The translations under genes and the position numbers were made by a program. Positions 9,318-49,275 of a stretch of 64,000 nucleotides of DNA are shown in pieces. Source of the stretch: an uncultured Verrucomicrobiae bacterium (GTDB taxonomy: Bacteria; Verrucomicrobiota; Verrucomicrobiia; Limisphaerales; Palsa-1400); the NCBI GenBank assembly GCA_963707025.1, contig CAVPOM010000010.1, positions 96,001 through 160,000 on the forward strand. Direction: 5' to 3'. Under the pieces are notes generated by a model. It was not told the DNA's origin, made no database searches, and was given only the letters and a program-made list of their open reading frames with translations. Within the stretch, counting starts at the first letter, position 1. Each line of letters begins with the position of its first letter.

Positions 9318-9320
9318 GGC

Positions 9321-10813
9321 TGAGCTGGACCCCTATTTTTAGACCACAGGTAAGTTTCGATTTTTGCCGGTTTGCTGTAGATAAGAAAGAGCAGACTTAT
9401 GAAAGCAAAACGGAAAAGACACAGTGCGGCCTTCAAGGCCAAAGTGGGATTCGAAGCCCTGGTGGGGCTGAAGACGGTCGCGCAATTGGCGCGAGAGTAT
9501 GCGGTGCATCCGGCGCAGGTCACGCAGTGGCGGGCGACGATTCGGGATCACATGCCCGAATTGTTTGAGCCCGGGCAACCCCGCACGGAGGATCAGGAAC
9601 AGTTGATTGCCCAACTGCATGAGAAGATTGGCCAACTGACGGTGGACTTGGACTGGCTTAAAAAAAAGTCCAGGCAACTGGGGCTTTAACATGTTTAATC
9701 GCTCCCGATCCGCAGCTCAGCGTGCGGCGCCAGTGCGAGCTGCTGGCGGTGTGCCGTGGCAGTTATTATTACCAGTGCTGTCCGGAGACAGAGGAGAACC
9801 TGGCGCTGATGCGGCGGTTGGACCAGATGCATTTGGACCACCCGGTTTATGGCAGCCGCAAACTGACCGTGCTGTTGCGCCGGGAGGGTTTGACCATCAA
9901 TCGCAAACGGGTGGTGCGGCTGCTGCGGTTGATGGGGATCGAGGCGATTTACGCCAAGCCCAAGACGAGTCTGCGGGAGATGGGGCACCAGATTTATCCG
10001 TATCTGTTACGCAATTTGGCAGTGACGGGACCGGATCAGGTTTGGTGTTCGGACATTACGTATGTGCCTATGGCAACTGGGTTTATGTATTTGGTGGCGG
10101 TGATGGATTGGTGGAGTCGTTACGTGCTGGGATGGCGCTTGAGCAACACGTTGGAGGCGGACTTTTGTGTGGACGCTTGGGAGGCGGCGTTGCGGGCGGG
10201 GCGTCAGGCGCCGTTGATTTCCAATACCGACCAGGGATCGCAGTTCACCTCCCCGATGTTTATCGATGCGGTGGAATCGGCGGGGGTGGACGTGAGCATG
10301 GACGGACGGGTCGCTGGATGGACAACCGGTTTATCGAGCGGCTGTGGCGGAGCGCCAAGTATGAGGACATTTATTTGCAAGACTATGGCGACGGGTTGGC
10401 GGCAGGGCGCGGACTGGGCCGGTGGTTTGACGGCTACAACCGGGAACGACCGCACCAGGCGTTGGGCTATGCGACGCCGGCGGACGCGTATTTTGATCCC
10501 GGCACGCATGGAGCCCAACCGGCCAAATGGGAAGCGATGCAACCTGCCAGAGGCAGGAGCGATCGCAGCACTTGACAGAGAGGCAGGCGGCAGGAAAAGG
10601 CTTGAAATCAGACCGCCTGCGGCGGTAGAGTTGAGAACCCTAAGAAAACGGAGAGGGAGGACGGGCAGTGCTCCGCATCGCTCGTTCTCTCTTTTCGAAA
10701 GGGGTTTGAAACACGGAATGAACAGTAGTCAACTACAATTAGTAATGACAGCAATCGGCAAAAGTCGCGCTTATTTCATGCGCTCCGTGGTCTAAAGGAT
10801 GGGGTCCACCTCA
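9321..10813 (+). mobile_element. IS3-family element, copy 1 (orfA 9399-9689; orfB ~9722-10575, frameshifted near 10310)
   Basis: TG...CA ends with IRs TGAGCTGGACCCCTATTTTTAGACCAC / TGAGGTGGACCCCATCCTTTAGACCAC; GGC TSD; A8G slippery site near 9660; DDE motifs WCSDITY, NTDQGSQF and IERLWRS. Confidence 0.97.
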
Positions 10814-13800
10814 GGCATCGGCTCCGCTCAGGGCATATCCGCACACGGTGACTGGAATGTCCGCGCCAGCATTCGGGGCGGCAAAGGCAGCCGCCACCTC
10901 GTTCGTGACCAGGTTCACATCGTCCCCGCTGGCCTCTCCCTCCAAGGCGGCAACCCCGCTCAACTGCGCGTTGGTGGTCCCGTCATACACCTTGGACAGC
11001 GCCGCCAGGCCGGTCACCGTCAATCCGGCCGGGGTGATGCTGGCCGTCAGATTGGTCGGATCCACCACTGCGTAATTGCTGGCCCCCGCCCCGCCCAACG
11101 CCAAACCTGTTACTGTGACCGGCTTGTTCGTCCCCACATTCTTGTCCGCAAAATAGGCCGCGGCATTGCTGGCCACCAGCGTGACGCTGTCGCCGTTCAA
11201 CACGCCTTCCAAACCGGCATTGGTGGCATCCAAAGCGGCATTGGTCGTGCCGTCATAGACTTTGTCCACCGCCAGCAGGTTGGTCACGGCCAAGCCCGCC
11301 GCGGTGATGGTCAGCGCACCGTTGGTCAGATTATAGCTATAATTGGCGTCGCTCAACGTGCCTGGCCCCACGTCAATGGGATAAGAACCGACCGGGCTGT
11401 TGGACATGGCGATGGTGCTCAAGACCGCGCTGCCGCCCAGCACGGTGGGGTCCTCTCCGTTGACAAAGCCCGTGTAGGAGGCCCTCAGGGTCGGAACAGT
11501 GGAGCCGTAGGAGATGGAAAGATCGTTAGCCGTGACGCCCAAGGGCGCTGGCGCCACAGATACATCGCCTGGGACAAAGGAGAAGACGTAGTTGGTCGCG
11601 CTCAATGTGCCTTGCATGACCGAGATGGGATAAGGACTATTGGTTACCGGGCTGTTGGTGGTCGCGGTGGTGCTGACTGCGGCGCTGCCGCTCAAGACGC
11701 TGGCGGTGTCTCCGTTGACGAAGCCGCTGTAGCTGACGGTCAAAGGCGGCAGAAGGCTGCCGTACTGGTTGGTGATGCTCGTGGCCGTTACGGTCAATGC
11801 GGCCTGGGCCACGTTAAAACTCGCGCTCACAGCGCTCGCCAGACCGCTGGCGCTGGCGGTCAACTGCTTGTTGCCCGAGGAATTAATCTGCAAACCGGAG
11901 AATGTGACCACTCCATTTCCCGTGTTGAGTCCGATGTCCAGGTTTGCCGTGCCTAGAAGGGAACCCGCGCCCGACGAGAGCGACAAGGTCACGTTCAAGC
12001 TCAGGTTCAAACCAGAAATGGAACCATTACCATACGCATCCTGGGTGATGACCACCGGCTGAACGCCGAAGGGGGAACCCACGGCAGCCGAACCGGGCTG
12101 CGCGGAAAATGCCAGCCGCGCCACGGTTCCGGGATTTACCTGGACGATGCTCGAAGTTGCGCCCGTCAATGCACCGCTGTTGAAATCTACGCTGATCGGG
12201 ACAGCCACGTCGTGGGCGAGGTTGACGAATGTTGCCACGCCGTTGACGTTGGTCGCGGTCAGCGTGCCCTGCAACACGCCGGAACCGCTGCCGGCGTCGC
12301 GAGCAGCCATGACCACGGTGCCATTGTCCGCGCTGCATAAATTTCCAAATTGATCTTCAACAAGGATGACGGGTTGTTGAGCGAATGGAACGCCCGACAT
12401 GGCGACCGACGATGGTTGGGTCTGAATGACAAGCTGGCTTCCCGCGCCAGCACATACCACCGTGCCGGAAGATGTTGCCAAAGTCAGAGTGCCAGAGGTG
12501 AAATCAATAGTGATGGTTTCGGCGACCTGATAACCGAGATCGGTGAAGGTCACGACACCGTTGGCGGCGGTGGCCGTCAGCGTGCCGAGTAATGTCCCCG
12601 ATCCCTGGTCGAGCGAGGCGGCAACCACCGTGCTGTTGTCAGCATTGCGCAGATTGCCAAATTGGTCCTGCACTTGAACTGCCGGCTGTTGCGAGAACAC
12701 GACGCCCGCCGTGGCCGCGGCGGAAGGCTGGATTTGAAGGGCCACCTGGCTCGCCACCGCGGGACTGACCACGGTGTTGCCCGAATTTATGGCAGCGACA
12801 CCCGAAGCGGTGAAACTGAGCGCGATGGTTTCGGCCACTTGATAGCTCAACCCGCCGAAGGTGGCAATTCCGCCCACGGCAGTGGCCGTGGCCGGCCCTT
12901 GCAGCGTGCCTGTTCCAGTGTTGATTCCTGCGGTGACCACGGTGGAATCGTCTGCGTTGCGCAAGTTGCCGAATTGATCTTCAATTTGAATCACCGGTTG
13001 CTGGGCGAACTCGACTCCTGCGGCCGCGCTGGAAGAGGGTGCGGTCTGGATGCCAAGTTGGGTGGCCGCGCCGACAACTTCCGCGAGAAAACCGAAACTC
13101 GTCGAGCTGGCCGTCACGCCTTGTATGACCGCGGTGCCCGAAACCACCAAATTGCCGCTGGCAAGCGGTGTGCCCGCTGAGGGCTGCACGCTGACATTTT
13201 GCCAAGTGAGCGAGCAGGTCACCCCGCCGCTGCTGGCTGATGCGACCGTGAACGTCAGCTTATTGGCGGTTTGGGAAGTCATGGCCAGGGATGTTCCGCT
13301 GGCCACACCGTTGATATTTAACGAATTGGCGCCTGATCCCCCAACCCGCGTGATGAGCACAGTCGGAGCGGGGCCGCTCGTATTGAAAACGAATCCGGCG
13401 GGCGCCTTAAGAATGATGGTTCCGGCGCCGACGTTGCCATTTTGGATTTCCGTGTAAACCGGCCCGGTTAAATTTGTATAAGCTCCTCCTGTGGCATCGG
13501 CGGAGATGGCGGAGCCGCCCGTGGCCGGCGTGAGCAAACTGCCGGGGCCAAACCCAACCACGAACCAACCGACATCTGCCTGATCCCCAGTATCATTGCG
13601 ATCCAGCGCAGGCTGCGTGGCACTGGTCACCGCCAGAGTGGCGGACCCGACTCCCAGCACACTGCCGGTGGACGCAGACCGCCCGGTGTTTTGGCCGCCC
13701 ACCGGTTGCACAGAGGCAAAAGCCGCCGCGCGATTGGTGTCGAGGCTGAGGAGCGTGACGTTGGTTTCCCCGATGCCGTTGGCGAGGGTCACCGAGCCGC

Positions 13801-28997: not shown

Positions 28998-29083
28998 CCT
29001 TGCCGGCAGGCCAAAGCCCTCATACCCGCAGTCGAAGGAATCCACCAACGGGCGCGAATTGCGCCAATCCTGGGTGAAGTGGT

Positions 29084-29132
29084 GGAGTAACGGAGTGGTG
29101 GAGTATTGGAGTGATGGAGTGATGGAGTGATG
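29084..29132 (+). repeat. Degenerate GGAGTGAT octamer tandem repeat
   Basis: About six units, same motif as the array at 38107-38298. Confidence 0.8.
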
Positions 29133-29245
29133 AGCACGGCGGCTGCAAAAAACACCTTGATTAGGGGAATTATATACAATCTTACACCGCCGCCAGCCGC
29201 CTCCAAACCGGGCAAAGCGTTGACCGAAAGGACGTTCCATGAAAT

Positions 29246-29512
29246 TTAAGCGGTGGCCTTCGGCAGTTCGGGGGCTTCTGGAAGGAATAAAATCCGGTAT
29301 TGGAATTCATGTTCGACGGCTTGACGTATGGCAAGACCGAGGAACGGCAGCCCATCATCTGAGACAATCAGCCAGGTCCCTGCATTCAGGATTTCGACAC
29401 CTTTACTGGATGATGAGTCATCTTCAACGGCTTCTACGATCTGCCACCATTTATGTTTTCTTTTATCGTCGGAATCGGACGGACGTTTCACAACAAAGAG
29501 GATTGAGTTCAT
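29246..29512 (-). CDS. Hypothetical cargo protein (88 aa)
   Basis: ATG ORF just downstream of, and co-oriented with, the RM gene inside the transposon. Confidence 0.6.
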   Translation of the reverse strand: MNSILFVVKRPSDSDDKRKHKWWQIVEAVEDDSSSSKGVEILNAGTWLIVSDDGLPFLGLAIRQAVEHEFQYRILFLPEAPELPKATA

Positions 29513-29865
29513 GTCCCGAATCAGAGGGCCAAGAGGCGGGGGATGTCAAGCGGTGAAACCGTTACGGCTTGCGTCCCCGTTTCTTTGGCGTGGCTGGCAA
29601 CAACGGGGCGGTGAATTTCTCATAAAGCGCAAAAAGGAACCCCACACGCTCCCGGTCTGACCGAAACGGCTCCGGGCGGTAGCACTGCTCCACGGCACGA
29701 TCAAGTTCCGTGTGGGCTTTCGACAAGGCGGGAGGCATGGTGAGGGGGTCGTACAAATCAGCAATCGTGCCCGTGCCTCTCGGAGGCAAATGCGGCTCAC
29801 GCGCTTCAAGAACGATTTTTGCTTTACTATTTATTCGGTCACGCTGGCTATCGGTGACAATCGGC

Positions 29866-31359
29866 TGAGGTGGACCCCATCCTTTAGACCACGGAGCGCA
29901 TGAAATAAGCGCGACTTTTGCCGATTGCTGTCATTACTAATTGTAGTTGACTACTGTTCATTCCGTGTTTCAAAACCCTTTCGAAAAGAGAGAACGAGCG
30001 ATGCGGAGCACTGCCCGTCCTCCCTCTCCGTTTTCTTAGGGTTCTCAACTCTACCGCCGCAGGCGGTCTGATTTCAAGCCTTTTCCTGCCGCCTGCCTCT
30101 CTGTCAAGTGCTGCGATCGCTCCTGCCTCTGGCAGGTTGCATCGCTTCCCATTTGGCCGGTTGGGCTCCATGCGTGCCGGGATCAAAATACGCGTCCGCC
30201 GGCGTCGCATAGCCCAACGCCTGGTGCGGTCGTTCCCGGTTGTAGCCGTCAAACCACCGGCCCAGTCCGCGCCCTGCCGCCAACCCGTCGCCATAGTCTT
30301 GCAAATAAATGTCCTCATACTTGGCGCTCCGCCACAGCCGCTCGATAAACCGGTTGTCCATCCAGCGACCCCGTCCGTCCATGCTCACGTCCACCCCCGC
30401 CGATTCCACCGCATCAATAAACATCGGGGAGGTGAACTGCGATCCCTGGTCGGTATTGGAAATCAACGGCGCCTGACGCCCCGCCCGCAACGCCGCCTCC
30501 CAAGCGTCCACACAAAAGTCCGCCTCCAACGTGTTGCTCAAGCGCCATCCCAGCACGTAACGACTCCACCAATCCATCACCGCCACCAAATACATAAACC
30601 CAGTTGCCATAGGCACATACGTAATGTCCGAACACCAAACCTGATCCGGTCCCGTCACTGCCAAATTGCGTAACAGATACGGATAAATCTGGTGCCCCAT
30701 CTCCCGCAGACTCGTCTTGGGCTTGGCGTAAATCGCCTCGATCCCCATCAACCGCAGCAGCCGCACCACCCGTTTGCGATTGATGGTCAAACCCTCCCGG
30801 CGCAACAGCACGGTCAGTTTGCGGCTGCCATAAACCGGGTGGTCCAAATGCATCTGGTCCAACCGCCGCATCAGCGCCAGGTTCTCCTCTGTCTCCGGAC
30901 AGCACTGGTAATAATAACTGCCACGGCACACCGCCAGCAGCTCGCACTGGCGCCGCACGCTGAGCTGCGGATCGGGAGCGATTAAACATGTTAAAGCCCC
31001 AGTTGCCTGGACTTTTTTTTAAGCCAGTCCAAGTCCACCGTCAGTTGGCCAATCTTCTCATGCAGTTGGGCAATCAACTGTTCCTGATCCTCCGTGCGGG
31101 GTTGCCCGGGCTCAAACAATTCGGGCATGTGATCCCGAATCGTCGCCCGCCACTGCGTGACCTGCGCCGGATGCACCGCATACTCTCGCGCCAATTGCGC
31201 GACCGTCTTCAGCCCCACCAGGGCTTCGAATCCCACTTTGGCCTTGAAGGCCGCACTGTGTCTTTTCCGTTTTGCTTTCATAAGTCTGCTCTTTCTTATC
31301 TACAGCAAACCGGCAAAAATCGAAACTTACCTGTGGTCTAAAAATAGGGGTCCAGCTCA
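29866..31359 (-). mobile_element. IS3-family element, copy 2 (orfA 30991-31281, orfB 30104-30958)
   Basis: Same IRs as copy 1, GGC TSD at 29863-29865 and 31360-31362, intact ORFs. Confidence 0.97.
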
Positions 31360-32138
31360 GGCCAAGGGAAATTGTTGTCACACTATTGTGTTGGAGTATT
31401 GATAACGGCTTTCCAAGCGACCACCTTTCACATCCAAGCCATGTGCATAATGGATGACAAAACTCCGAAATGGAAAGGTTGAGCGTTGGGGACAATCAAA
31501 GAACTTCCATTAGCGACCACCTCAGATTTAAGAAACCCCAAAGGGAGATATTGTCTTCGTTCGGACGAAACCTTCGGAAATAATAAGTAGTCATCATTTG
31601 GCTGTCTATCCTCGCCGACAGACGCGGGCGTTGATGCAAGCTCGATAGTTGGCGGTTTCTTGCTTGCCGCACGGAACCTGCGAACTGCCTCGACTCGTTC
31701 CAGAATTGGAGGACAACTCCGAATATCATTCGGCGACGCACGTTCCAGCCAAAGCACCCACCGCTTCGTGCCGTTGAGAAACTCATCCCCACCTGTAAAT
31801 GGCCGGATAACATGCTCCGTGAACGGATACCCCTGAATCAGTTCCTCCCTTTCCTTTGCATCCAGAATGAAATGCCCATCGTCCACCAACTTTGTTCCGA
31901 AAACCATTTCAGGAACCCCGCACAGCGGCCTTGCCCGGTAGAGAACGACGATATTTTGCGCGTCCGTCAAATACGGACTGATATTCTTGACAGAAAACGA
32001 ATGTGGATCGCCTCTAGGGTCATCGTGCTACTCGAACAGCCTTTTCGTATCGGCTGGATAAGCAGCAAAACCAATTATTACAACATGGACATGCGCCTTT
32101 CCGCGCGCCTCGCTTTGCCACGCAAAAGTTCGATGCGC

Positions 32139-33632
32139 TGAGGTGGACCCCATCCTTTAGACCACGGAGCGCATGAAATAAGCGCGACTTTTGCCGATTG
32201 CTGTCATTACTAATTGTAGTTGACTACTGTTCATTCCGTGTTTCAAACCCCTTTCGAAAAGAGAGAACGAGCGATGCGGAGCACTGCCCGTCCTCCCTCT
32301 CCGTTTTCTTAGGGTTCTCAACTCTACCGCCGCAGGCGGTCTGATTTCAAGCCTTTTCCTGCCGCCTGCCTCTCTGTCAAGTGCTGCGATCGCTCCTGCC
32401 TCTGGCAGGTTGCATCGCTTCCCATTTGGCCGGTTGGGCTCCATGCGTGCCGGGATCAAAATACGCGTCCGCCGGCGTCGCATAGCCCAACGCCTGGTGC
32501 GGTCGTTCCCGGTTGTAGCCGTCAAACCACCGGCCCAGTCCGCGCCCTGCCGCCAACCCGTCGCCATAGTCTTGCAAATAAATGTCCTCATACTTGGCGC
32601 TCCGCCACAGCCGCTCGATAAACCGGTTGTCCATCCAGCGACCCCGTCCGTCCATGCTCACGTCCACCCCCGCCGATTCCACCGCATCAATAAACATCGG
32701 GGAGGTGAACTGCGATCCCTGGTCGGTATTGGAAATCAACGGCGCCTGACGCCCCGCCCGCAACGCCGCCTCCCAAGCGTCCACACAAAAGTCCGCCTCC
32801 AACGTGTTGCTCAAGCGCCATCCCAGCACGTAACGACTCCACCAATCCATCACCGCCACCAAATACATAAACCCAGTTGCCATAGGCACATACGTAATGT
32901 CCGAACACCAAACCTGATCCGGTCCCGTCACTGCCAAATTGCGTAACAGATACGGATAAATCTGGTGCCCCATCTCCCGCAGACTCGTCTTGGGCTTGGC
33001 GTAAATCGCCTCGATCCCCATCAACCGCAGCAGCCGCACCACCCGTTTGCGATTGATGGTCAAACCCTCCCGGCGCAACAGCACGGTCAGTTTGCGGCTG
33101 CCATAAACCGGGTGGTCCAAATGCATCTGGTCCAACCGCCGCATCAGCGCCAGGTTCTCCTCTGTCTCCGGACAGCACTGGTAATAATAACTGCCACGGC
33201 ACACCGCCAGCAGCTCGCACTGGCGCCGCACGCTGAGCTGCGGATCGGGAGCGATTAAACATGTTAAAGCCCCAGTTGCCTGGACTTTTTTTTAAGCCAG
33301 TCCAAGTCCACCGTCAGTTGGCCAATCTTCTCATGCAGTTGGGCAATCAACTGTTCCTGATCCTCCGTGCGGGGTTGCCCGGGCTCAAACAATTCGGGCA
33401 TGTGATCCCGAATCGTCGCCCGCCACTGCGTGACCTGCGCCGGATGCACCGCATACTCTCGCGCCAATTGCGCGACCGTCTTCAGCCCCACCAGGGCTTC
33501 GAATCCCACTTTGGCCTTGAAGGCCGCACTGTGTCTTTTCCGTTTTGCTTTCATAAGTCTGCTCTTTCTTATCTACAGCAAACCGGCAAAAATCGAAACT
33601 TACCTGTGGTCTAAAAATAGGGGTCCAGCTCA
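32139..33632 (-). mobile_element. IS3-family element, copy 3 (orfA 33264-33554, orfB 32377-33231)
   Basis: Same IRs; imperfect 4-bp TSD GCGC/GTGC whose removal restores the host frame F-A-H-R. Confidence 0.97.
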
Positions 33633-35373
33633 GTGCGAAATGAATGCTAAGGTGATACCGACAAAACACCTCATTCCAAAGAATGCTTACCTGTTCGCCT
33701 TGGGTGATTGAATTTGTTGACACAAACGCAACTTTAATTCTGGTTCCTTGAATATATTCGGCAGCCTGCTGATACCATGAGCAAACGTAATCAAGGACGC
33801 CAGCAGCTTTTGAGTGCGTGAAAATTATATCCATGTCGGCCTTTTGTTCTAGGTTTTGCTCTTTCTTGCCGACAAACGGTGGATTACCGAGAACGTAGCT
33901 GCACAGTTCAGGCCGTAAAATCTCCTTCCAGTCAAGTCGGAGCGCGTTTCCAGGAACAATCGTCGGGGACTTTTTAAGGGGCAGGCGTTGATACCATTGC
34001 CCGAAGGCTTGCGAGATTTTCACGTTCATCTGGTGATCCATCAGCCAGAGTGCAACCTCGGCAATTCGCACAGGCCATTCGAGAATCTCAATGCCGTAGA
34101 ACTGGTCCACGTTGACCTTTGACAATTTGGTGATCTCCATTTCCGTTTGCCCCCCAAAAAGTTCCTTGAGCGTTTCAAGTTCAAGTTGGCGCAGTTCCCG
34201 GTAGGCGATGACGAGGAAGTTGCCGCAGCCGCAAGCCGGGTCCAGGAACCGGAGATTGCAAAGTTTGTCTTGGAATTCCTGCAAACGCGCCCGGCGCCCG
34301 GTTGACCGGTCGGCCTTACGGTTTTCAAATTCGGCGCGGAGATCGTCCAGGAACAGCGAGCGGATGACCTTAAGGATGTCTCGTTCACTCGTATAATGCG
34401 CCCCAATCTGGCGGCGGTCCTTCGGTTGCATTACAGACTGAAAGAGCGAGCCGAAAATGGCCGGGGAGATGCGCGACCAATCCTTGCGTGTGCAAGCAAG
34501 GAGCGCGTTGCGCATGTCGGCATTGAAATCAGCAAAATGAAGCTGTTCGCTAAAAAGCTCACCGTTGACGTGGGGAAAGCAGGCCAGCGTTTCATCGAGA
34601 TTTTTCTGGCGTTTCTCAGGTTCCGTGTTCAGGACATCAAAAAGCCTCGCCAATTTTTGCCCCAGGTCTGAGCCGTCCAGCGCGGTGCGATTCTCGATGA
34701 AAAGCCGGAATGATTCAGGCTCAAAAAGCTGAGTGCATTGGGCAAACAGGCAAAACAGGATGCGGACGAGGAATCGTTCAAGTTCATGGCCGCTGTAGCC
34801 GCCAGCCTTAAGCGCGTCGTGAAGGTTGCCCATGATTTCGACCGCCTCAATGTTGATCGGGTCTTGCTCGTGAAAGGTGTGCTGCTGGTAGCCAGCGATG
34901 AAGGCGAAATCGCTGATGTGGAGATAAAGTTCGGAAAGCGGAAATTCATGCGTCGCCCCGCGCTTTTCATTCGCATCCAGGTCGTGCAAGGCGATCCGCG
35001 CAAAATCAGACACGATGATATAATGGGGCAATTCAATGTCAGGGTTTTCATCAGCAAGCTCACGGATATAACCGAGCGCCTGTGTTTCGGCTTTGCTCAA
35101 ATCCTTTCCAAACGATTTATGTTCAACGAGCAGCTTGCCCGGCCAGAGGAGGTCAATGTAGCCATAATCGCCAGCCTTTTTCTTGACTGGCACTTCACAG
35201 GCGGCGACACGGCGGCGCTGGATTCCGAAGACCTGAAAGAAAGCGTTCCAAAACGTCTGTGATTCGGCGGTTTCACTTTTGACGCCCGTCCAATCTTTTG
35301 AAAAGGCAATGGCGTTGTGGCGGATTTCGTTCCAACTGATCGGCATGGGTCAGGATTCTGCCCCGAAGAATCG

Positions 35374-35418
35374 GGCCGTCAAGATTTCTGTTGACGGCCT
35401 TTGCTCGTTTGCTAGAAG
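35374..35418. promoter_or_regulatory. Back-to-back TTGACG -35 boxes forming a palindrome (putative divergent promoters)
   Basis: GGCCGTCAA-N8-TTGACGGCC; TGCTAGAA lies about 16 bp downstream on +, and CAGAAT lies 16 bp downstream on -, shortly before the RM start codon. Confidence 0.5.
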
Positions 35419-35423
35419 CGCGG

Positions 35424-35541
35424 CAACGGTGTCGAAACCGTTGAGAAATAGCGGGGACATTGATTTGCGACCCGTCATAGCTGGCCACCCGGCCACCGCT
35501 GCCCGCAGCGAGTTTCGACAGCTAGGACGGGTCCATTTTTT
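35424..35541 (+). ncRNA. C4-antisense-like structured RNA with upstream target hairpin
   Basis: Outer stem GACCCGTC-A-TAGCTG / CAGCTA-G-GACGGGTC encloses two small hairpins; internal GTTTCGACA is complementary to TGTCGAAAC (35430-35438) and CCGCT to AGCGG (35450-35454); a T-run follows. Confidence 0.6.
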
Positions 35542-35667
35542 ATGAACAGAAGAGTAATGGGCGCAACGCGGAGCCGAACGCGAAAGCGCCCGAAAAAATA
35601 AAAAGCACGGCCCGCTTGGTGATTCTTTGTCAAGACGCCAAGCGGGCCGGAGGCAAAACAGCAAGTT

Positions 35668-35741
35668 GCCAGTGTGGCGAAACGGCAAACGCAACCGCCT
35701 GTCGCGCGGTATTATTGCGGGTTCAAATCCCGCCACTGGCA
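35668..35741 (+). tRNA. Atypical tRNA-Asp (GTC), CCA not encoded
   Basis: Acceptor GCCAGTG/CACTGGC; D arm GCG...CGC with GG in the loop; anticodon stem ACCGC/GCGGT with loop CT-GTC-GC; T arm GCGGG-TTCAAAT-CCCGC; discriminator A. Confidence 0.85.
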
Positions 35742-35847
35742 CTTGAACCGTTGCGAGGCTCGCACGGAAAATGTCGAAAGTCAAAGATTTTTTGGTGTGA
35801 AAATCCACGCCCAAAAAGCAGCAGTAAAACTATTTTCAAATAATTAC

Positions 35848-35876
35848 TTGACAGAAGAACAAATTTAGTGTAATCT
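35848..35876 (+). promoter_or_regulatory. Sigma70-type promoter of the transposase (near-leaderless mRNA)
   Basis: TTGACA-17 bp-TAATCT ending 9 bp before the ATG at 35886; no Shine-Dalgarno sequence. Confidence 0.65.
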
Positions 35877-35885
35877 ACTACCAGA

Positions 35886-36807
35886 ATGAAAAACATATTG
35901 GATTTCAAAACGCTGATGGAGTTCACGGATTATTTCAAGGACGAGGCGACCTGCGTGGCGCACTTCACGGCCACGCGGTTCCGCAACGGGGAGTATTGCC
36001 CGCACTGCCACACCACCAAGATTTACAAATGCGCCGGCGGCAAGCGGTATCACTGTGCCAGTTGCAAGCAGGATTTCACCATCCGCACCAAGACGGTTTT
36101 CGGGGAGTCCAAGCTGCCGCTCCGCAAGTGGTACATGGCGGTTTATCTTCTTTCCACCACGAGCAAGGGCATATCGAGTTTGCAACTGGCAAAGCACGTC
36201 GGCGTCACGCAAAAGACGGCGTGGTTTATGGACCACCGATTGCGCTCGGCAATGAAACAGGACGGCGGGCAGATTTTTGGGACGGTCGAGGCGGATGAAA
36301 CCTACGTGGGCGGGGCCGTCCGCAACATGCACAAGTGGAAGGTGGACAGGTCGAAAGTGGGGACGGGCGGGAAGGGCAAGGCGATAGTTTTCGGGATGAA
36401 GCAGAGGGGCGGTCAGGTGCGGGCCAGGCTGATAGCGAACAACGGCTCCGAGCAACTCCATCCGGCCATTCAGGCGACCGTTGCCCCCGGTTCGGGTACT
36501 TTACACGGACGAACACCGGGGCTACAATGGTTTGGAAGGTTACAGCCGGACGGTGGTGAACCACAGCGTCAGGGAGTACGTGAACGGGATGGCCCACACG
36601 AACGGGATTGAGTCGTTCTGGGCGCTGTTCAAGAGGTGCTACCACGGCGTTTATCACTGGATGAGCCGGAAGCACCTTCAAAAGTACATTGACGAAGCGG
36701 CTTACCGGCTCAATCGCCGGGGCCAGGACATGAACATGGTGTTCGGGGAAGTTGTGGAACGAACAACAGATGGCGCGAAACTGCCGTATAAGAAGCTGAT
36801 CGAATGA
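35886..36807 (+). CDS. IS1595-family (ISXO2-like DDE) transposase; frameshift near 36495
   Basis: Zn ribbon CPHC...CASC, HTH, VEADETYVGG, LYTDE, HTNGIESFW and HLQKYIDE. Confidence 0.93.
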
Positions 36808-36968
36808 GCCGACCGCAGAAAATAATGCCGCCCCTCAAAGGCACGTTCACGGAGATCGTCACCGCTGTGGCCGATGGGAAGGGCTTCAAAAAGGCGAAGC
36901 CGAAGCTCATGGCGAACGAGCGCGCCACTGCGACGACGCCGAAACCGCCGCTGAAAAAAGGAACTTGA
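36804..36968 (+). CDS. Small basic protein (54 aa) coupled to the transposase
   Basis: ATGA overlap with the transposase stop; MSRPQKIMPPLKGTFTEIVTAVADGKGFKKAKPK... (below the ORF-track cut-off). Confidence 0.6.
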   Translation: MSRPQKIMPPLKGTFTEIVTAVADGKGFKKAKPKLMANERATATTPKPPLKKGT

Positions 36969-37001
36969 CGCCACCGGCATGTTTGGTGGAATCCAGGAAC
37001 T

Positions 37002-37229
37002 ATGAGCAAATTCAATCGTTCTCCAAAAGCTGACAGAACCGGCGGAATTGCCTGCAATTTGGCCCTTGGTGACATTACCATTTTAGACGTGAGGAATCAC
37101 GACTATGTGGTCATGGTTCGCAAAGGGACAGGTTCCAAGGAATGCCGAAGAACATTAGACGAGTTGAAGGCGAGGTATCAAGGCAGGAAACGGCGTTTGC
37201 CTGGCGTGGCTACGGTTGCGCCGCCTTGA
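37002..37229 (+). CDS. Hypothetical protein (75 aa)
   Basis: ATG preceded by AGGAA; overlaps the convergent ORF at its 3' end. Confidence 0.35.
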   Translation: MSKFNRSPKADRTGGIACNLALGDITILDVRNHDYVVMVRKGTGSKECRRTLDELKARYQGRKRRLPGVATVAPP

Positions 37230-37384
37230 TGTTCTCGAATACCATCCACAGAGTCCTCCTTAAAGAACTGGACTTCTTTGCCGTCAGCGGTTTGAAACGT
37301 GTATTGGCCGTTGTCGTGGACATATCCTTCGGCATTGACCGGAACTTCTTTTCCATTCTTGAGATGAACGTAAAATAATTTCAT
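37178..37384 (-). CDS. Small beta-rich hypothetical cargo protein (68 aa)
   Basis: MKLFYVHLKNGKEVPVNAEGYVHDNGQYTFQTADGKEVQFFKEDSVDGIRE, an alternating beta-strand pattern. Confidence 0.6.
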   Translation of the reverse strand: MKLFYVHLKNGKEVPVNAEGYVHDNGQYTFQTADGKEVQFFKEDSVDGIREHQGGATVATPGKRRFLP

Positions 37385-38106
37385 AATTCGTTGCTTCCGA
37401 CGCATGGAATCGAAAGTCCGGCAGGCGCGGATGTCAAGCGTCGAAGCCGCCGTGGCGGCCATCGCGGCGGGGACGGTTCACTGTAACATTATATATAAAT
37501 CCCTTGATTAGGCTTGATTGACCTTGTTGGAAATCGTGATGGAAATGGCCCCATTTTTGTCGTAAATTGTTCATGGAAAGGCACTTGAGACGATTTTTTG
37601 CAAAAAAGCTCATCCGTCGTCGCTTCGCAGTTGCGTGACCAGGGAGTGGTGGGCATGGTCAAGGTTGAAAACATGGTTTGACTGGGTGTGACCGGTTTGA
37701 CCGGCTGGGCGCAAATGCATCCTCCTCCGCAGGGCCTGCCGAGGACAGGAAATGCAAAATGCAAAATGGGAAGCAGGGCGGGAGCGATGAGGTTTTCATG
37801 GGTGCGGCAAATTGGGGCAGCACGGTTGCTTTGGGGACAGGATGAACGGGAGGCACAGGATTTTGAGCGTTGCAACCTGCGCGGTCCCGGCAGGGCCGGG
37901 ATTGGACATGGAACTTCTGACGCTTTGGCGTGTGCCGACGGGTCGGCGCCGCTTTGCTCTCCGGGAATCGTTCCCAATCCAAAAGCGGGAGCAAGCTCCC
38001 GCACTCCATAGACACCGCCCTCTTCACTATGCCAAATTAGCATTTAACCCAGGTGTTGTCAATGGGAAAAGGAAGGAAAAAGAAGGGGGGTTGAACCGGA
38101 GCAGCC

Positions 38107-38298
38107 GGAGTGATGGAGTGATGGAGTGATGGAGTGATGGAGTGATGGAGTGATGGAGTGATGGAGTGATGGAGTGATGGAGTGATGGAGTGATGGAGTG
38201 ATGGAGTGATGGAGTGATGGAGTGATGGAGTGATGGAGTGATGGAGTGATGGAGTGATGGAGTGATGGAGTGATGGAGCGATGGAGTGCTGGAGTGAT
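38107..38298 (+). repeat. (GGAGTGAT)n octamer tandem repeat, 24 units
   Basis: 21 perfect units (38107-38274), two variant units and one more perfect unit. Confidence 0.97.
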
Positions 38299-38512
38299 GG
38301 GGATGCTGATCGAGCCGTTTCGGGCCGTTTACAACTCATTGATTCGGAGGATATTCAACTTTCAACGGGGCAAAGCCATTGTTTGACACCGTTCACGCGA
38401 CGCCTTTCACGAGCGATCCAATTTGACCATTGATTATCGTAACGTCGCCATTGAATTTATCAAATAGGGTCACTCTCTGGCGGGGGTTATATTTGGAACC
38501 ATGAAAACAAGA

Positions 38513-39962
38513 CACACCCGTCTCATAAGGGGAAAAGTCTGGTGCTGACCTGTTCATTTGCAAGGGTTTAATTGGTCTTCGGGGTAAAATGAGATTTTGA
38601 TTTTTCCGAGTTTGGCTTTTGGGTGTGGTATGCGCCTGTTTGGGCGCGTGTGCTGTCCCATAGCTTTATTGGAAGCCGGGGAAATACGCCTGCTCGGGCC
38701 GCGCCAAGTGGCGAAAGCTGCCGCCTGCTGTCCCATAGCACGCCAGCAAATTGAGCAGATCATATTTCTCCCAGAGCGCCGCCCGCAAAATCGTGAACAG
38801 CCGGGTGAAGCTGTGCGCCCAGTTGGAGAGGTGACTGAGGTAGCGCAACAGCACGTAGGTCAACAGCGCCGTCCACACCTGCCAGCGCACGGCGTTGGCG
38901 TTGTGGCCCAGAAAATCCGCCAACTGCAAGGTCTGCTTGATTTGTTTGAAGAAGACTTCGATCTGCCAGCGGCAGCGGTAAAGGTCGGCCACGCTGCGCG
39001 GACTCCACTCCAGGTTGTTGGTCAGGAAGGTCATTTCCCGTTCCTCTCCATCAATCTCGACCAGCGCCACCACCCGGCGCATCAACTCCGGCGCGGGTTT
39101 GTTCTCGTTGCTCAGGACGATCACTTCGTCGCGCAAAATCTTCGGGTCTCTGGAGGCGGGCATTTTCCGCACCACCTCATAGCCCATGTTCTCCTTGGCC
39201 CGCGTCACCCAAAAGACCCCGCGCCCGTCCAAATCCCGCAAGTGGCCGAAGTCCACATAACCCTTGTCGAACAAGGCGATTTCGCCGCTCTTCAAGTCGG
39301 CGCACAGTTCCCGCGCCCGTCGGTTGTCGTGCTCGGCGGCAGTGTCCACAATGACAAAACCGGGCAAAAGATTCTGCAGATTCAACCGCATATGGGTTTT
39401 GGCGGCGGCCTTGCGCCGGCGGTGCTTGGCCCAGTCCAGGCAGTTGGCCACCAGTTCCATGGTCGTGCTATCAATCACATGGATGGGCATCTTGAAACGG
39501 AAGGCGGGGCCACGGCGCTGGCCCGCGGCAAAGCCGGGCGTCTGTGCTTTCAAATGCTCCAGGACCCGCCAGAAGAGTTGTTCGGCCATCTGGGCCGGAC
39601 GCTCCCGGTTGGCGTGGGAGAGGCCGTTGCGGCTGGGGGCGCTGGCGCCGCGCAAAGTGGACAGCGGCCCGGAATGCAATTGCAGCGAGTCGCACAGATC
39701 GTTGAGTCCGATGCAATGGGTGAGTTGCGCGTCCAGCAAACTGACCGTGTGACTCCACGGACTGAAGGTGCGCGACTTATCCAGAGCCCGGTCTCCCGCG
39801 CTATTTTGGAGACTTCATGCGCAGGAATGAGATTGCAAATCTGGCGCAAAACGTTAAACCGGGACCGTGTTGGTTTGATTTTTTTGTTTTTCATGCCTGC
39901 CTTGTGGCAGGTTCAAATGGTCAAGCCAACACTTTTTTCCAATTTCCTGTGGGATGGCTGTG
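38513..39962 (-). mobile_element. IS4-family element, copy 1 (transposase frameshifted near 39787)
   Basis: Ends CACAGCCATCCCACAG / CACACCCGTCTCATAA; 9-bp TSD AAAACAAGA; YRCRWQIEVFFKQIK (YREK signature); 1 bp shorter than the other copies. Confidence 0.96.
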
Positions 39963-40010
39963 AAAACAAGATGTAATTCACTCGGCTATTTAGCTACCCC
40001 CCAAGAATGT

Positions 40011-41135: not shown

Positions 41136-42892
41136 TCACCATGTCGTCTCTGCTGCATTTGGGTCGTCATACCACAACGTAAGATAATCGTCATACGGAT
41201 TATGTGGCCCCATCACCCAATAAAACGGGGCGCAAGGAAAATAAAAAGTCACAGCCATCCCACAGGAAATTGGAAAAGAGTGTTGGCTTGACCATTTGAA
41301 CCTGCCACAAGGCAGGCATGAAAAACAAAAAAATCAAACCAACACGGTCCCGGTTTAACGTTTTGCGCCAGATTTGCAATCTCATTCCTGCGCATGAAGT
41401 CTCCAAAATAGCGCGGGAGACCGGGGCTCTGGATAAGTCGCGCACCTTCAGTCCGTGGAGTCACACGGTCAGTTTGCTGGACGCGCAACTCACCCATTGC
41501 ATCGGACTCAACGATCTGTGCGACTCGCTGCAATTGCATTCCGGGCCGCTGTCCACTTTGCGCGGCGCCAGCGCCCCCAGCCGCAACGGCCTCTCCCACG
41601 CCAACCGGGAGCGTCCGGCCCAGATGGCCGAACAACTCTTCTGGCGGGTCCTGGAGCATTTGAAAGCACAGACGCCCGGCTTTGCCGCGGGCCAGCGCCG
41701 TGGCCCCGCCTTCCGTTTCAAGATGCCCATCCATGTGATTGATAGCACGACCATGGAACTGGTGGCCAACTGCCTGGACTGGGCCAAGCACCGCCGGCGC
41801 AAGGCCGCCGCCAAAACCCATATGCGGTTGAATCTGTAGAATCTTTTGCCCGGTTTTGTCATTGTGGACACTGCCGCCGAGCACGACAACCGACGGGCGC
41901 GGGAACTGTGCGCCGACTTGAAGAGCGGCGAAATCGCCTTGTTCGACAAGGGTTATGTGGACTTCGGCCACTTGCGGGATTTGGACGGGCGCGGGGTCTT
42001 TTGGGTGACGCGGGCCAAGGAGAACATGGGCTATGAGGTGGTGCGGAAAATGCCCGCCTCCAGAGACCCGAAGATTTTGCGCGACGAAGTGATCGTCCTG
42101 AGCAACGAGAACAAACCCGCGCCGGAGTTGATGCGCCGGGTGGTGGCGCTGGTCGAGATTGATGGAGAGGAACGGGAAATGACCTTCCTGACCAACAACC
42201 TGGAGTGGAGTCCGCGCAGCGTGGCCGACCTTTACCGCTGCCGCTGGCAGATCGAAGTCTTCTTCAAACAAATCAAGCAGACCTTGCAGTTGGCGGATTT
42301 TCTGGGCCACAACGCCAACGCCGTGCGCTGGCAGGTGTGGACGGCGCTGTTGACCTACGTGCTGTTGCGCTACCTCAGTCACCTCTCCAACTGGGCGCAC
42401 AGCTTCACCCGGCTGTTCACGATTTTGCGGGCGGCGCTCTGGGAGAAATATGATCTGCTCAATTTGCTGGCGTGCTATGGGACAGCAGGCGGCAGCTTTC
42501 GCCACTTGGCGCGGCCCGAGCAGGCGTATTTCCCCGGCTTCCAATAAAGCTATGGGACAGCACACGCGCCCAAACAGGCGCATACCAAACCCAAAAGCCA
42601 AACTCGGAAAAATCAAAATCTCATTTTACCCCGAAGACCAATTAAACCCTTGCAAATGAACAGGTCAGCACCAGACTTTTCCCCTTATGAGACGGGTGTG
42701 ATAAAAAGTCGTTCGAACACGTTCGGGGGCAAAATCAAAATAGCCGCGACCATCCAACGCATAAAAGGGACCCAAGAAAAGCAAGTAAGCGGGATAAACC
42801 AGCACAAGGAAAAGCAACCACCTTCGCACACGCCGAGCGGAACACGACGGCGTTGACAACGTCAACGGATGCTCTGTGCTGAAAACATTCAT
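41136..42892 (-). pseudogene. Small membrane protein interrupted by IS4 copy 2
   Basis: Removing the IS and one TSD gives ...WLLFLVLVYPAYLLFLGPFYAL...VRTTFY-FPCAPFYWVMGPHNPYDDYLTLWYDDPNAAETTW in frame. Confidence 0.75.
41250..42700 (+). mobile_element. IS4-family element, copy 2 (premature TAG at 41837-41839)
   Basis: Same ends; 9-bp TSD ATAAAAAGT; CAG changed to TAG relative to the other copies. Confidence 0.96.
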
Positions 42893-47653: not shown

Positions 47654-47664
47654 TGGTTTGGATT

Positions 47665-49115
47665 CACAGCCATCCCACAGGAAATTGGAAAAAAGTGTTG
47701 GCTTGACCATTTGAACCTGCCACAAGGCAGGCATGAAAAACAAAAAAATCAAACCAACACGGTCCCGGTTTAACGTTTTGCGCCAGATTTGCAATCTCAT
47801 TCCTGCGCATGAAGTCTCCAAAATAGCGCGGGAGACCGGGGCTCTGGATAAGTCGCGCACCTTCAGTCCGTGGAGTCACACGGTCAGTTTGCTGGACGCG
47901 CAACTCACCCATTGCATCGGACTCAACGATCTGTGCGACTCGCTGCAATTGCATTCCGGGCCGCTGTCCACTTTGCGCGGCGCCAGCGCCCCCAGCCGCA
48001 ACGGCCTCTCCCACGCCAACCGGGAGCGTCCGGCCCAGATGGCCGAACAACTCTTCTGGCGGGTCCTGGAGCATTTGAAAGCACAGACGCCCGGCTTTGC
48101 CGCGGGCCAGCGCCGTGGCCCCGCCTTCCGTTTCAAGATGCCCATCCATGTGATTGATAGCACGACCATGGAACTGGTGGCCAACTGCCTGGACTGGGCC
48201 AAGCACCGCCGGCGCAAGGCCGCCGCCAAAACCCATATGCGGTTGAATCTGCAGAATCTTTTGCCCGGTTTTGTCATTGTGGACACTGCCGCCGAGCACG
48301 ACAACCGACGGGCGCGGGAACTGTGCGCCGACTTGAAGAGCGGCGAAATCGCCTTGTTCGACAAGGGTTATGTGGACTTCGGCCACTTGCGGGATTTGGA
48401 CGGGCGCGGGGTCTTTTGGGTGACGCGGGCCAAGGAGAACATGGGCTATGAGGTGGTGCGGAAAATGCCCGCCTCCAGAGACCCGAAGATTTTGCGCGAC
48501 GAAGTGATCGTCCTGAGCAACGAGAACAAACCCGCGCCGGAGTTGATGCGCCGGGTGGTGGCGCTGGTCGAGATTGATGGAGAGGAACGGGAAATGACCT
48601 TCCTGACCAACAACCTGGAGTGGAGTCCGCGCAGCGTGGCCGACCTTTACCGCTGCCGCTGGCAGATCGAAGTCTTCTTCAAACAAATCAAGCAGACCTT
48701 GCAGTTGGCGGATTTTCTGGGCCACAACGCCAACGCCGTGCGCTGGCAGGTGTGGACGGCGCTGTTGACCTACGTGCTGTTGCGCTACCTCAGTCACCTC
48801 TCCAACTGGGCGCACAGCTTCACCCGGCTGTTCACGATTTTGCGGGCGGCGCTCTGGGAGAAATATGATCTGCTCAATTTGCTGGCGTGCTATGGGACAG
48901 CAGGCGGCAGCTTTCGCCACTTGGCGCGGCCCGAGCAGGCGTATTTCCCCGGCTTCCAATAAAGCTATGGGACAGCACACGCGCCCAAACAGGCGCATAC
49001 CAAACCCAAAAGCCAAACTCGGAAAAATCAAAATCTCATTTTACCCCGAAGACCAATTAAACCCTTGCAAATGAACAGGTCAGCACCAGACTTTTCCCCT
49101 TATGAGACGGGTGTG
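47665..49115 (+). mobile_element. IS4-family element, copy 3 (intact transposase 47733-48962)
   Basis: Same ends; 9-bp TSD GTTTGGATT; 409-aa ORF with DDE motifs IDST, FDKGY and YRCRWQIE. Confidence 0.97.
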
Positions 49116-49275
49116 GTTTGGATTCAATTAATACTCCTTGGACGCTTGACAGCGACCGCATGACGACTACACTTACAATCTTATGCCTGTTACTTGCCGC
49201 AAGGCAATCCACATTTCTTGGTAATTAAGCCCCTTTTCTTGCCCCAGCATGGGTCAATTCAGCGGAAAAGCCCGA

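Follow-up and report, generated by a model that had tools for sequence, protein, structure and literature searches.

The element and its boundaries

The 64,000-nt stretch of DNA analysed here (the window) comes from an uncultured Verrucomicrobiae bacterium of soil (GenBank assembly GCA_963707025.1, contig CAVPOM010000010.1, positions 96,001 to 160,000). Between positions 29157 and 37511 it contains a decayed passenger-carrying transposon of the IS1595 family of insertion sequences (ISs), inside which a cassette of structured RNAs ends in a tRNA gene that combines a leucine-type body with the anticodon GUC. The ends of the element, the cassette and the transposase gene are arranged as follows.

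29157..29164, left copy of the 8-bp target duplication, TTGATTAG, within a dispersed chromosomal repeat
29165..29187 (+), left terminal inverted repeat, 23 bp
35355..35418, divergent promoter region, with a minus-strand sigma70-like site for the MmeI-like gene (scan call)
35424..35443 (+), 'a1' hairpin with loop GUCGAA
35469..35533 (+), three-way-junction RNA of C4-like anatomy (fold z −4.68)
35536..35544 (+), conserved U-tract and AUG, TTTTTATG
35559..35592 (+), leader hairpin H3 with a conserved GCCGA loop
35608..35649 (+), leader hairpin H4, whose long stem shows compensatory changes
35668..35741 (+), tRNA, anticodon GUC, with a D arm of leucine type, a variable loop of 6 nt, A73 and pairable flanks; CCA is not encoded
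35773..35779 (+), third GTCGAAA copy, a possible downstream 'a2' site, not shown to be conserved
35886..36807 (+), IS1595 transposase (zinc ribbon, DDE), with a frameshift near 36490-36500
37481..37503 (−), right terminal inverted repeat
37504..37511, right copy of the target duplication

The two inverted repeats (IRs) are identical at 19 of 23 positions and the 8-bp duplication is perfect, delimiting an element of 8339 bp, or of 5351 bp when two nested 1494-bp IS3 copies are subtracted. The ends fit the IR consensus of the clade to which the transposase belongs (GGGAACTATATACAAAGTTACC); the four mismatches between them compare with none in 21 of 33 clade relatives. When the whole genome was scanned for pairs of GG..CC ends with an identical 8-bp flank, no more than 4 mismatches in 23 positions and a spacing of 1-10 kb, 21 pairs were found, all of them IS-like and none chance-like. 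The empty site was present in the same genome, where 21 of 177 BLAST pieces from other loci cross the junction without the element. It was also present in a genome of the same genus, whose orthologous locus, placed behind the same response-regulator gene (89% identity), has the repeat with a single TTGATTAG and lacks the element; a genome of the same family likewise lacks it. No closer IR pair was found around the transposase. The ends and their duplication, the empty site, the IS-like nature of the end pairs and the absence of a closer pair together indicate that all of the 8.3 kb transposed in one piece, which is present as a single copy in the genome (18 contigs, 6.96 Mb). A preliminary description of this DNA, made from the letters alone, had proposed these bounds and a single IS1595 unit with restriction-modification (RM) and RNA cargo, and had suggested looking for an empty site in relatives and for closer IRs that would exclude the RM/tRNA region. 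The bounds are confirmed, the empty site exists, closer repeats do not, and the proposal of one unit is further supported by the clade IR consensus and by RM cargo elsewhere in the clade.

The repeat that received the element (window 29080-29164 and 37504-37620) is intergenic and has at least 21 copies on many contigs; it consists of GGAGTGAT tandem units followed by TTGATTAG-type units, and a long GGAGTGAT array lies at 38107-38300. A solo IR of the same IS1595 clade is located at G000:C18:668632, after a TTAATCAG flank, with no partner within ~15 kb.

A leucine-type tRNA with a mismatched anticodon

Both ARAGORN and Rfam called a tRNA with anticodon GTC inside the element; ARAGORN labelled it tRNA-Asp, as did the preliminary description. 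It forms a regular 7/5 cloverleaf in which all four stems are completely paired, and it has GUC and C38, which are identity elements for aspartyl-tRNA synthetase. The rest of the body does not agree with that label. Its D arm is nearly the same as that of the host tRNA-Leu(UAA) and not of class I type, and its discriminator is A73 whereas both host tRNA-Asp genes (GTC) have G73; A73, A14 and the class II D loop, all present, make up the layout associated with leucine identity. Among 14 loci of the order hit by BLAST, 11 of the 12 called tRNA genes are tRNA-Leu(TAA). The tRNA-Asp label is therefore not upheld. Judged by its sequence, the leucine-type body with a mismatched anticodon is the more important point, and it had been overlooked.

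Homologous bodies bear the anticodons UGG, UGU, AGA and UGA. The pattern of a leucine-type D arm with GUC had 2 viral matches, at least 121 metagenome matches, and a match in one of 401 genomes of the phylum, the element's own; a leucine-type D arm with any non-leucine anticodon occurs in 4 of 301 genomes of the order, the other three all with UGG. Among the matches listed, 87 distinct GUC sequences were present, 76 of them with a well-paired acceptor stem; A73 occurs in 64 of these 76, and the variable arm has at least 13 nt in 75 of them, as against 6 nt in the window copy. The window tRNA also has G37 where most relatives have A37. Pairing of the tRNA flanks as strong as that observed arose in at most 1 of 300 shuffles for the window and for 8 of 12 relatives, whereas 6 of 77 host tRNAs reached p ≤ 0.02.

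An IS1595 transposase adjoins 6 of 123 GUC loci among the matches listed, or 3 of the 23 in which 2.5 kb are available on both sides; the other listed loci adjoin IS1-like or DDE transposases, integrases, RM genes or ordinary genes. The closest tRNA among these matches (L126) ends ~30 bases inside an IR of the present clade. In a neighbour survey covering 66 of 121 neighbouring open reading frames (ORFs) at 34 picked loci, a SocA-like antitoxin was among the genes near leucine-type GUC tRNAs. In a large GUC subgroup the neighbours are ordinary genes (amino-acid permease, DUF2779, RNase E/G), and no transposase was seen there (L130, L132, L142-L145, L156 and many more metagenome loci).

Natural bacterial tRNAs with discordant anticodons have precedents. 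The allo-tRNAs described by Mukai et al. in 2017 have serine or alanine identity and an 8/4 or 9/3 fold, with GUC among their common anticodons; they include lethal missense suppressors in E. coli and have links to transposon ORFs and toxin-antitoxin systems (PMC5389517, partial text). Like those tRNAs and the irregular tRNA polycistrons, the tRNAs considered here would take their identity from the body and not from the anticodon, and GUC is one of the predominant anticodons (PMC5389517 and PMC7609411, partial texts). Allo-tRNAs are tRNA-Sec-like with G73 or U73 (PMC5389517, partial text), whereas the window tRNA is leucine-type with A73, lies in a bounded IS and follows a structured leader; its 7/5 fold and 6-nt loop also differ from the 8/4 or 9/3 fold, tRNA-Sec-like D arm and long variable arm by which allo-tRNAs are recognized. 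Irregular tRNAs of 7/5 fold are shown in supplementary figures of the 2017 study and may limit how new the window type is. The tRNA-ProX/ProA of Actinomycetes likewise combine one body with several non-cognate anticodons, and they mistranslate; they are accompanied by a dedicated synthetase, ProRSx (PMC11415595, partial text), while the window element has no synthetase gene. The available parts of two reviews (PMC11415595, PMC7609411) make no mention of leucine-type tRNAs inside IS elements.

The RNA cassette and its relatives

The order of the cassette is a1 hairpin, three-way junction, U-tract, H3, H4 and tRNA, and in the window the leader helices are completely paired. The same whole cassette, in the same order and with 67% column identity, was found at loci L292 and L302, two of the three UGG cases of the order, where it adjoins IS1595 transposases of another clade; at L292 it lies inside a bounded 2.4-kb IS1595 element with an 8-bp duplication. 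The cassette is thus a portable module, shared with further mobile elements from this order, and its tRNA anticodon varies by copy (GUC in the window, UGG in the others). A model (R1) built on the U-tract, H3 and H4 of these three copies was used to search 151 genomes of the order and the fetched loci. It matched four further loci with an irregular tRNA downstream (L342, L343, L345 and L331), as well as the GUC locus L181. Matches in G788 and G736 (two of the seven in the order) and in G075 (class search) were rejected as plain terminators.

In eight sequences, 25 of the 31 pairs vary on both sides, including 10 of 12 in H4, and the paired share is 86%, versus 37-46% in slid-alignment controls; these figures come from an alignment fitted to the model, a fit that favours the structure. 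RNAalifold run on a plain MAFFT alignment did not recover H3 and H4.

The a1 hairpin and the junction are present in four cassettes (window, L292, L302 and L343). In all four, only 0-1 of 300 shuffles folded as stably as the junction, and the P1 stems differ in sequence yet are paired. The 3′ joint of the window junction, UUUCGAC (35513-19), is complementary to the a1 loop, and the 7-mer GTCGAAA occurs three times in 550 nt, against 0.08 expected. The letters of loop and joint differ by copy (GTCGAAA/TTTCGAC, ACTCAAAA/TTTTGAGT and CTGAAA/TTTCAG). The complementary run is of 9 bp in the window and L292 (equalled in 3 and 7 of 2000 shuffles, respectively).

This anatomy resembles that of C4 RNA, which has three stems and target-specific loops (PMC5320573, partial text; the Rfam entry RF01695 is listed in PMC2864571). 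As in C4 of P1/P7 and the c4-a1b1 motif, a three-stem junction has an unpaired stretch that appears to be the complement of a site further upstream (above chance in two of the four cassettes), and the pair varies by copy (PMC2864571 and PMC5320573, partial texts). Unlike C4, there is one complementary pair instead of two, and what lies downstream is the leader and tRNA, not icd/ant, with no conserved downstream target. The Rfam C4 model gave no match in the window, even at E values up to 10, and none in six related loci; in the whole genome it gave a single unrelated match of 19.8 bits. At gathering and E-value thresholds, the window and 14 related loci yielded only tRNA/tmRNA-clan matches in Rfam. 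No second (b) pair, downstream a2/b2 target or icd/ant-like gene was clearly identified at the locus. Since Rfam finds no C4, the term 'C4-like' rests on anatomy and covariation and not on family membership. The C4-like antisense RNA of the preliminary description is supported as regards its anatomy, by a loop/joint complement that appears to change together in three or four cassettes, and dropped as regards membership of the Rfam family; as predicted from sequence, the RNA shares the C4 logic in part, and by the tests run it is not a C4 member.

Pattern searches of viral sequences gave 29 matches to the a1/joint pair and 22 to the leader, none convincing; of the latter, seven were rescored with R1, and all fell short of E 0.01. 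A BLAST search with the RNA region as query in the 151 genomes of the order returned tRNA arms only. No description of the cassette was found in the open-access literature (supplements excluded), and it is absent from Rfam. A CreT-like mini-ORF (M-x-R-R), which follows the U-tract of three cassettes, was discarded, being absent from the other three, and so was a T-box likeness of H3, for which Rfam gave no support.

Two observations concern the surroundings of the leader. It precedes short-armed irregular tRNAs, including CUA (amber-suppressor-like) and GAA types (L343:1633-1706, L342:1431-1506 and L345:900-970). An unnamed gene of 150-165 aa with a coiled-coil start and no PHROGs family often lies just 5′ of it (L349:2815-3309, L348:6221-6688, L350:1176-1652 and L301:6517-6966).

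Anticodon-codon match in related transposases

When 85 transposase rows were aligned, the codon at column 115 was the one read by the element's own tRNA in all 12 carriers of a long-armed tRNA: ten with codon ACA and anticodon UGU, one with TCT and AGA, and one with TCA and UGA. ACA is present at this column in 4 of 31 non-carriers, and a single UGU tRNA, whose body is short and of class I, does not follow the pattern. In the UGU carriers, ACA codons fall at hydrophobic columns in 30 of 70 cases versus 14 of 133 for the other Thr codons, a bias not seen in non-carriers (9 of 117 versus 28 of 571). On a quick tree the UGA carrier is nested within the UGU group while the AGA carrier is separate. 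The column-115 pattern is what insertion of leucine by these tRNAs would produce.

The window transposase nests among eight non-carriers of Verrucomicrobial type. Recoding of the element's own transposase or MmeI-like gene by the window tRNA was rejected, there being no matching codons. A reading of GAC as Leu in the 75-aa ORF that follows the transposase was rejected as well: its one homologue keeps Asp at the four aligned positions, and GAC makes up 58% of the Asp codons of the host. The idea came from the five Asp codons of that ORF, all GAC, and from its recoded form, which looks membrane-spanning.

The IS1595 clade and the state of the element

Among 88 loci with related transposases, 58 bear IRs and an 8-bp duplication, and 33 elements form the clade with GGGA-type ends, lengths of 2.0-3.8 kb (5.35 kb for the window element) and mixed cargo: a Dam-like methylase in 15, a PD-(D/E)XK nuclease in 14, a tRNA in 9, DUF5343 in 6 and MmeI in none. 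Of the ISNwi1 and ISNha5 subgroups of the family, the element may be closest to ISNwi1. Passenger-carrying IS1595 elements (tIS) are known, e.g. MTnSag1/tISSag10 and tISCpe8 (PMC5704250, partial text). The window element has in common with them the DDE transposase of the family, IRs of ~25 bp, the 8-bp duplication and passenger genes, and differs in having its transposase internally and in carrying RM and RNA cargo, where the tIS described in that text carry resistance genes. The open-access literature yielded no tRNA cargo in described IS1595 tIS.

Two cargo arrangements recur in the clade. The Dam-like methylase and PD-(D/E)XK nuclease form a mobile RM pair in elements of several phyla (L010, L011, L013, L015, L017, L018, L020-L023, L025, L028, L029 and L049). 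In Patescibacteria elements, DUF5343 (PADLOC candidate PDC-M34A) lies directly 5′ of a long hairpin and an odd tRNA (L016, L024, L034, L036 and L041-L043).

The other genes of the window element are the following.

29246..29512 (−), 88-aa ORF of no family, with a homologue in clade element L008 (28.6%, E 2e-5)
29562..29865 (−), MmeI-like Type IIG/IIL RM gene, 3′ piece (MmeI_C)
29866..31359 (−), nested IS3-family copy 1, with a 3-bp duplication GGC
31360..32138 (−), middle piece of the MmeI-like gene, containing the target recognition domain, a TAG stop and two frameshifts
32139..33632 (−), nested IS3-family copy 2, with an imperfect 4-bp duplication
33633..35346 (−), 5′ piece of the MmeI-like gene with nuclease, helical-spacer and methyltransferase domains, an open frame of 570 aa; PADLOC REase_MTase_IIG, E 1e-211
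36804..36968 (+), 54-aa ORF, kept behind the transposase in Verrucomicrobial clade members
37002..37229 (+), 75-aa ORF with one distant homologue (P0124)
37178..37462 (−), 68/94-aa ORF of no family

The transposase, most of whose relatives are from Verrucomicrobiota, scores above the cut-off for Pfam PF12760 and PF12762, split over two frames. A contig from a public run is otherwise identical to the window over 36386-36635 with one gap, the place of which is not shown, so the frameshift could reflect either a fault in the assembly or variation between strains; the run is possibly not independent of the assembly. Overall, sequencing-run matches to the window were contigs throughout, the best with a share of 0.21; runs with small shares are uninformative as to habitat. 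The MmeI-like gene has all five Pfam MmeI domains in the order of Type IIG/IIL enzymes of that family, and its 5′ piece is 73% identical to full-length homologues. Instead of the single ORF (N-terminal, helical, methyltransferase, target recognition and C-terminal domains) of those enzymes it is a pseudogene, interrupted in five places by the two IS3 copies, a TAG stop and two frameshifts. The IS3 assignment was confirmed by Pfam, and 36 full copies more than 99% identical are present in the genome. No family was found for the small ORFs in Atlas, PHROGs or PADLOC; homologues of the 54-aa ORF occur in 7 of the 33 clade elements and of the 88-aa ORF in one.

The single internal IS1595 transposase and the MmeI-like cargo of the preliminary description are thus correct in family and position, while neither is intact in this assembly; the 88-aa and three small ORFs exist, and three of them (54, 75 and 88 aa) have homologues and are not orphans. 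The mobile defence unit that it proposed fails as an active one: with an MmeI pseudogene and a frameshifted transposase, the element is dead in that role. A second MmeI-like gene, intact and 955 aa long, is located at G000:C14:316497-319364; it has 74% identity to the window gene in the 5′ piece and is followed by a 1299-aa ORF in an integrative-element-like region; the RNA cassette is absent upstream of it.

Other features of the window and genome

Five other elements of 3-5 kb with IRs and an 8-bp duplication occur in the same genome, at G000:C9:13485-16448, C14:279242-282258, C17:64555-67758, C2:89923-95217 and C15:233807-238938; the C9 element ends 8 bases from a tRNA-Asn gene. The window also contains a 6S RNA at 1630-1811 (Rfam, 61.4 bits), and a third IS3 copy and three copies of another IS, at 9320-10814, 38502-39969, 41249-42700 and 47658-49126.

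Possible roles of the cassette

The reading we favour, to which we would give about an even chance of being right, is that the cassette is a portable, RNA-gated source of a misreading tRNA, carried in this copy as an uncoupled passenger. A single transcript would run from a plus-strand promoter through the whole cassette; pairing of the junction joint with the a1 loop would act as a C4-like switch, gating transcription past the U-tract; the paired flanks would slow tRNA maturation; and the mature tRNA would be charged by the host leucyl-tRNA synthetase, inserting leucine at the codon it reads. In the relatives the cassette would be coupled to fixed cognate codons in their own transposase, and this coupling would make transposase output dependent on the switch. 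The window copy appears uncoupled, its variable arm being shortened and the genes of the element lacking codons that match its anticodon; it would be a captured passenger which, if expressed, would cause misreading of host Asp codons.

Several results weigh against this proposal. The plus-strand promoter (TTGACG-16-TAGAAG, within 35355..35418) was recognized by eye only and was not called by the scan. As regards the switch, in L302 and L343 loop and joint are complementary over just 6 bp, no more than chance would give (248 and 215 of 2000 shuffles), the best-energy pairing of L292 or L302 is not with its own partner, no downstream a2 site is conserved above chance (only 6-nt matches at unrelated places), four leader matches have no visible a1/junction part, and one match (L351) has the leader but no tRNA. 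As regards coupling, the carriers are kin, with five changes on the quick tree, so that the Fisher p of 2.5e-7 overstates the case. The window transposase has no Asp codon at a hydrophobic column, the MmeI-like gene has 1 of 51, and five other GUC-linked IS1595 transposases offer no convincing coupling; self-recoding is consequently unsupported for any GUC tRNA. A reading of CCA as Leu in L292 and L302 was downgraded, since its signal held only against distant references: close relatives have A, V, T or P at the CCA sites, and the two loci share three of their four remaining Pro codons as well.

Alternatively, the cassette might be an RNA toxin-antitoxin or abortive-infection module in which the misreading tRNA is the toxin, kept off by the C4-like RNA and the paired flanks and let loose once the cell loses the element or a phage interferes with transcription. 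Asp-to-Leu misreading would be expected to be very toxic, C4 controls toxic or antirepressor genes in P1/P7, flank pairing is strong in the window and in most of the relatives, and defence neighbours are frequent (RM genes, DUF5343 in 6 of 33 elements, the SocA-like antitoxin). Allo-tRNAs of serine type with Leu anticodons are lethal in E. coli, and toxin-antitoxin systems are found close to allo-tRNA genes (PMC5389517, partial text). We nevertheless consider this rather unlikely: it leaves the fixed cognate transposase codon of all 12 carriers unexplained, and many GUC tRNAs adjoin ordinary chromosomal genes. The same modest weight is given to a neutral relic, i.e. a captured cassette decaying with its element, its tRNA now a pseudogene. 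The short variable arm, G37, the four IR mismatches and the broken MmeI-like and transposase genes all point that way, yet pairing is complete in each of the four tRNA stems and in every leader helix, a contig from another study matches 35500-35713 with only three changes and one gap, and the E. coli leucyl-tRNA synthetase can do without the long variable arm.

Two further explanations seem to us very unlikely. An immunity RNA of genuine C4/CI type, directed in trans at a phage or satellite and unrelated to the adjacent tRNA, would account for the three-stem anatomy, the loop complementary to an upstream site and the third 7-mer copy downstream; it is opposed by the lack of a Rfam C4 match in the window or six related loci, of an identified second (b) loop or downstream icd/ant-like gene, and of any convincing match among the 29 viral ones, and by the fact that the same leader and a tRNA invariably come after the junction. 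An ordinary spare tRNA-Asp, or a decoy resistant to anticodon nucleases, would agree with GUC and C38, the short variable loop and the ARAGORN call; A73 and the leucine-type D arm speak against it, as do the two tRNA-Asp(GTC) genes that the host already has and the homologous bodies with UGG, UGU, AGA and UGA.

Returning to the RNA-gated cassette, a broader and more tentative form of this proposal, which we regard as possible but short of probable, is that some ISs have a switchable private code made up of a C4-like gate, a leucine-charged tRNA with a swappable anticodon and the cognate codons in the transposase. Transposition would then occur only when the gate is open, the cassette moving between unrelated elements as a module, and host mistranslation or cell death may be a side effect of the open gate. 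The related elements with other anticodons suggest, from their sequences, that elements can turn on their own reading of the genetic code.

As a transposon the element is of a familiar type. What makes it interesting is its portable RNA cassette, together with the anticodon-codon match in its relatives, which, in three anticodon types, would provide a direct handle on element-specific recoding. Should the tRNAs prove to be leucylated, annotation tools that go by the anticodon give these genes a wrong label (Asp, Thr, Pro or Ser), and mobile elements would be a widespread source of regulated sense-codon misreading. The leader RNA would in turn represent a new class of regulator, one whose target is a tRNA rather than a protein gene.

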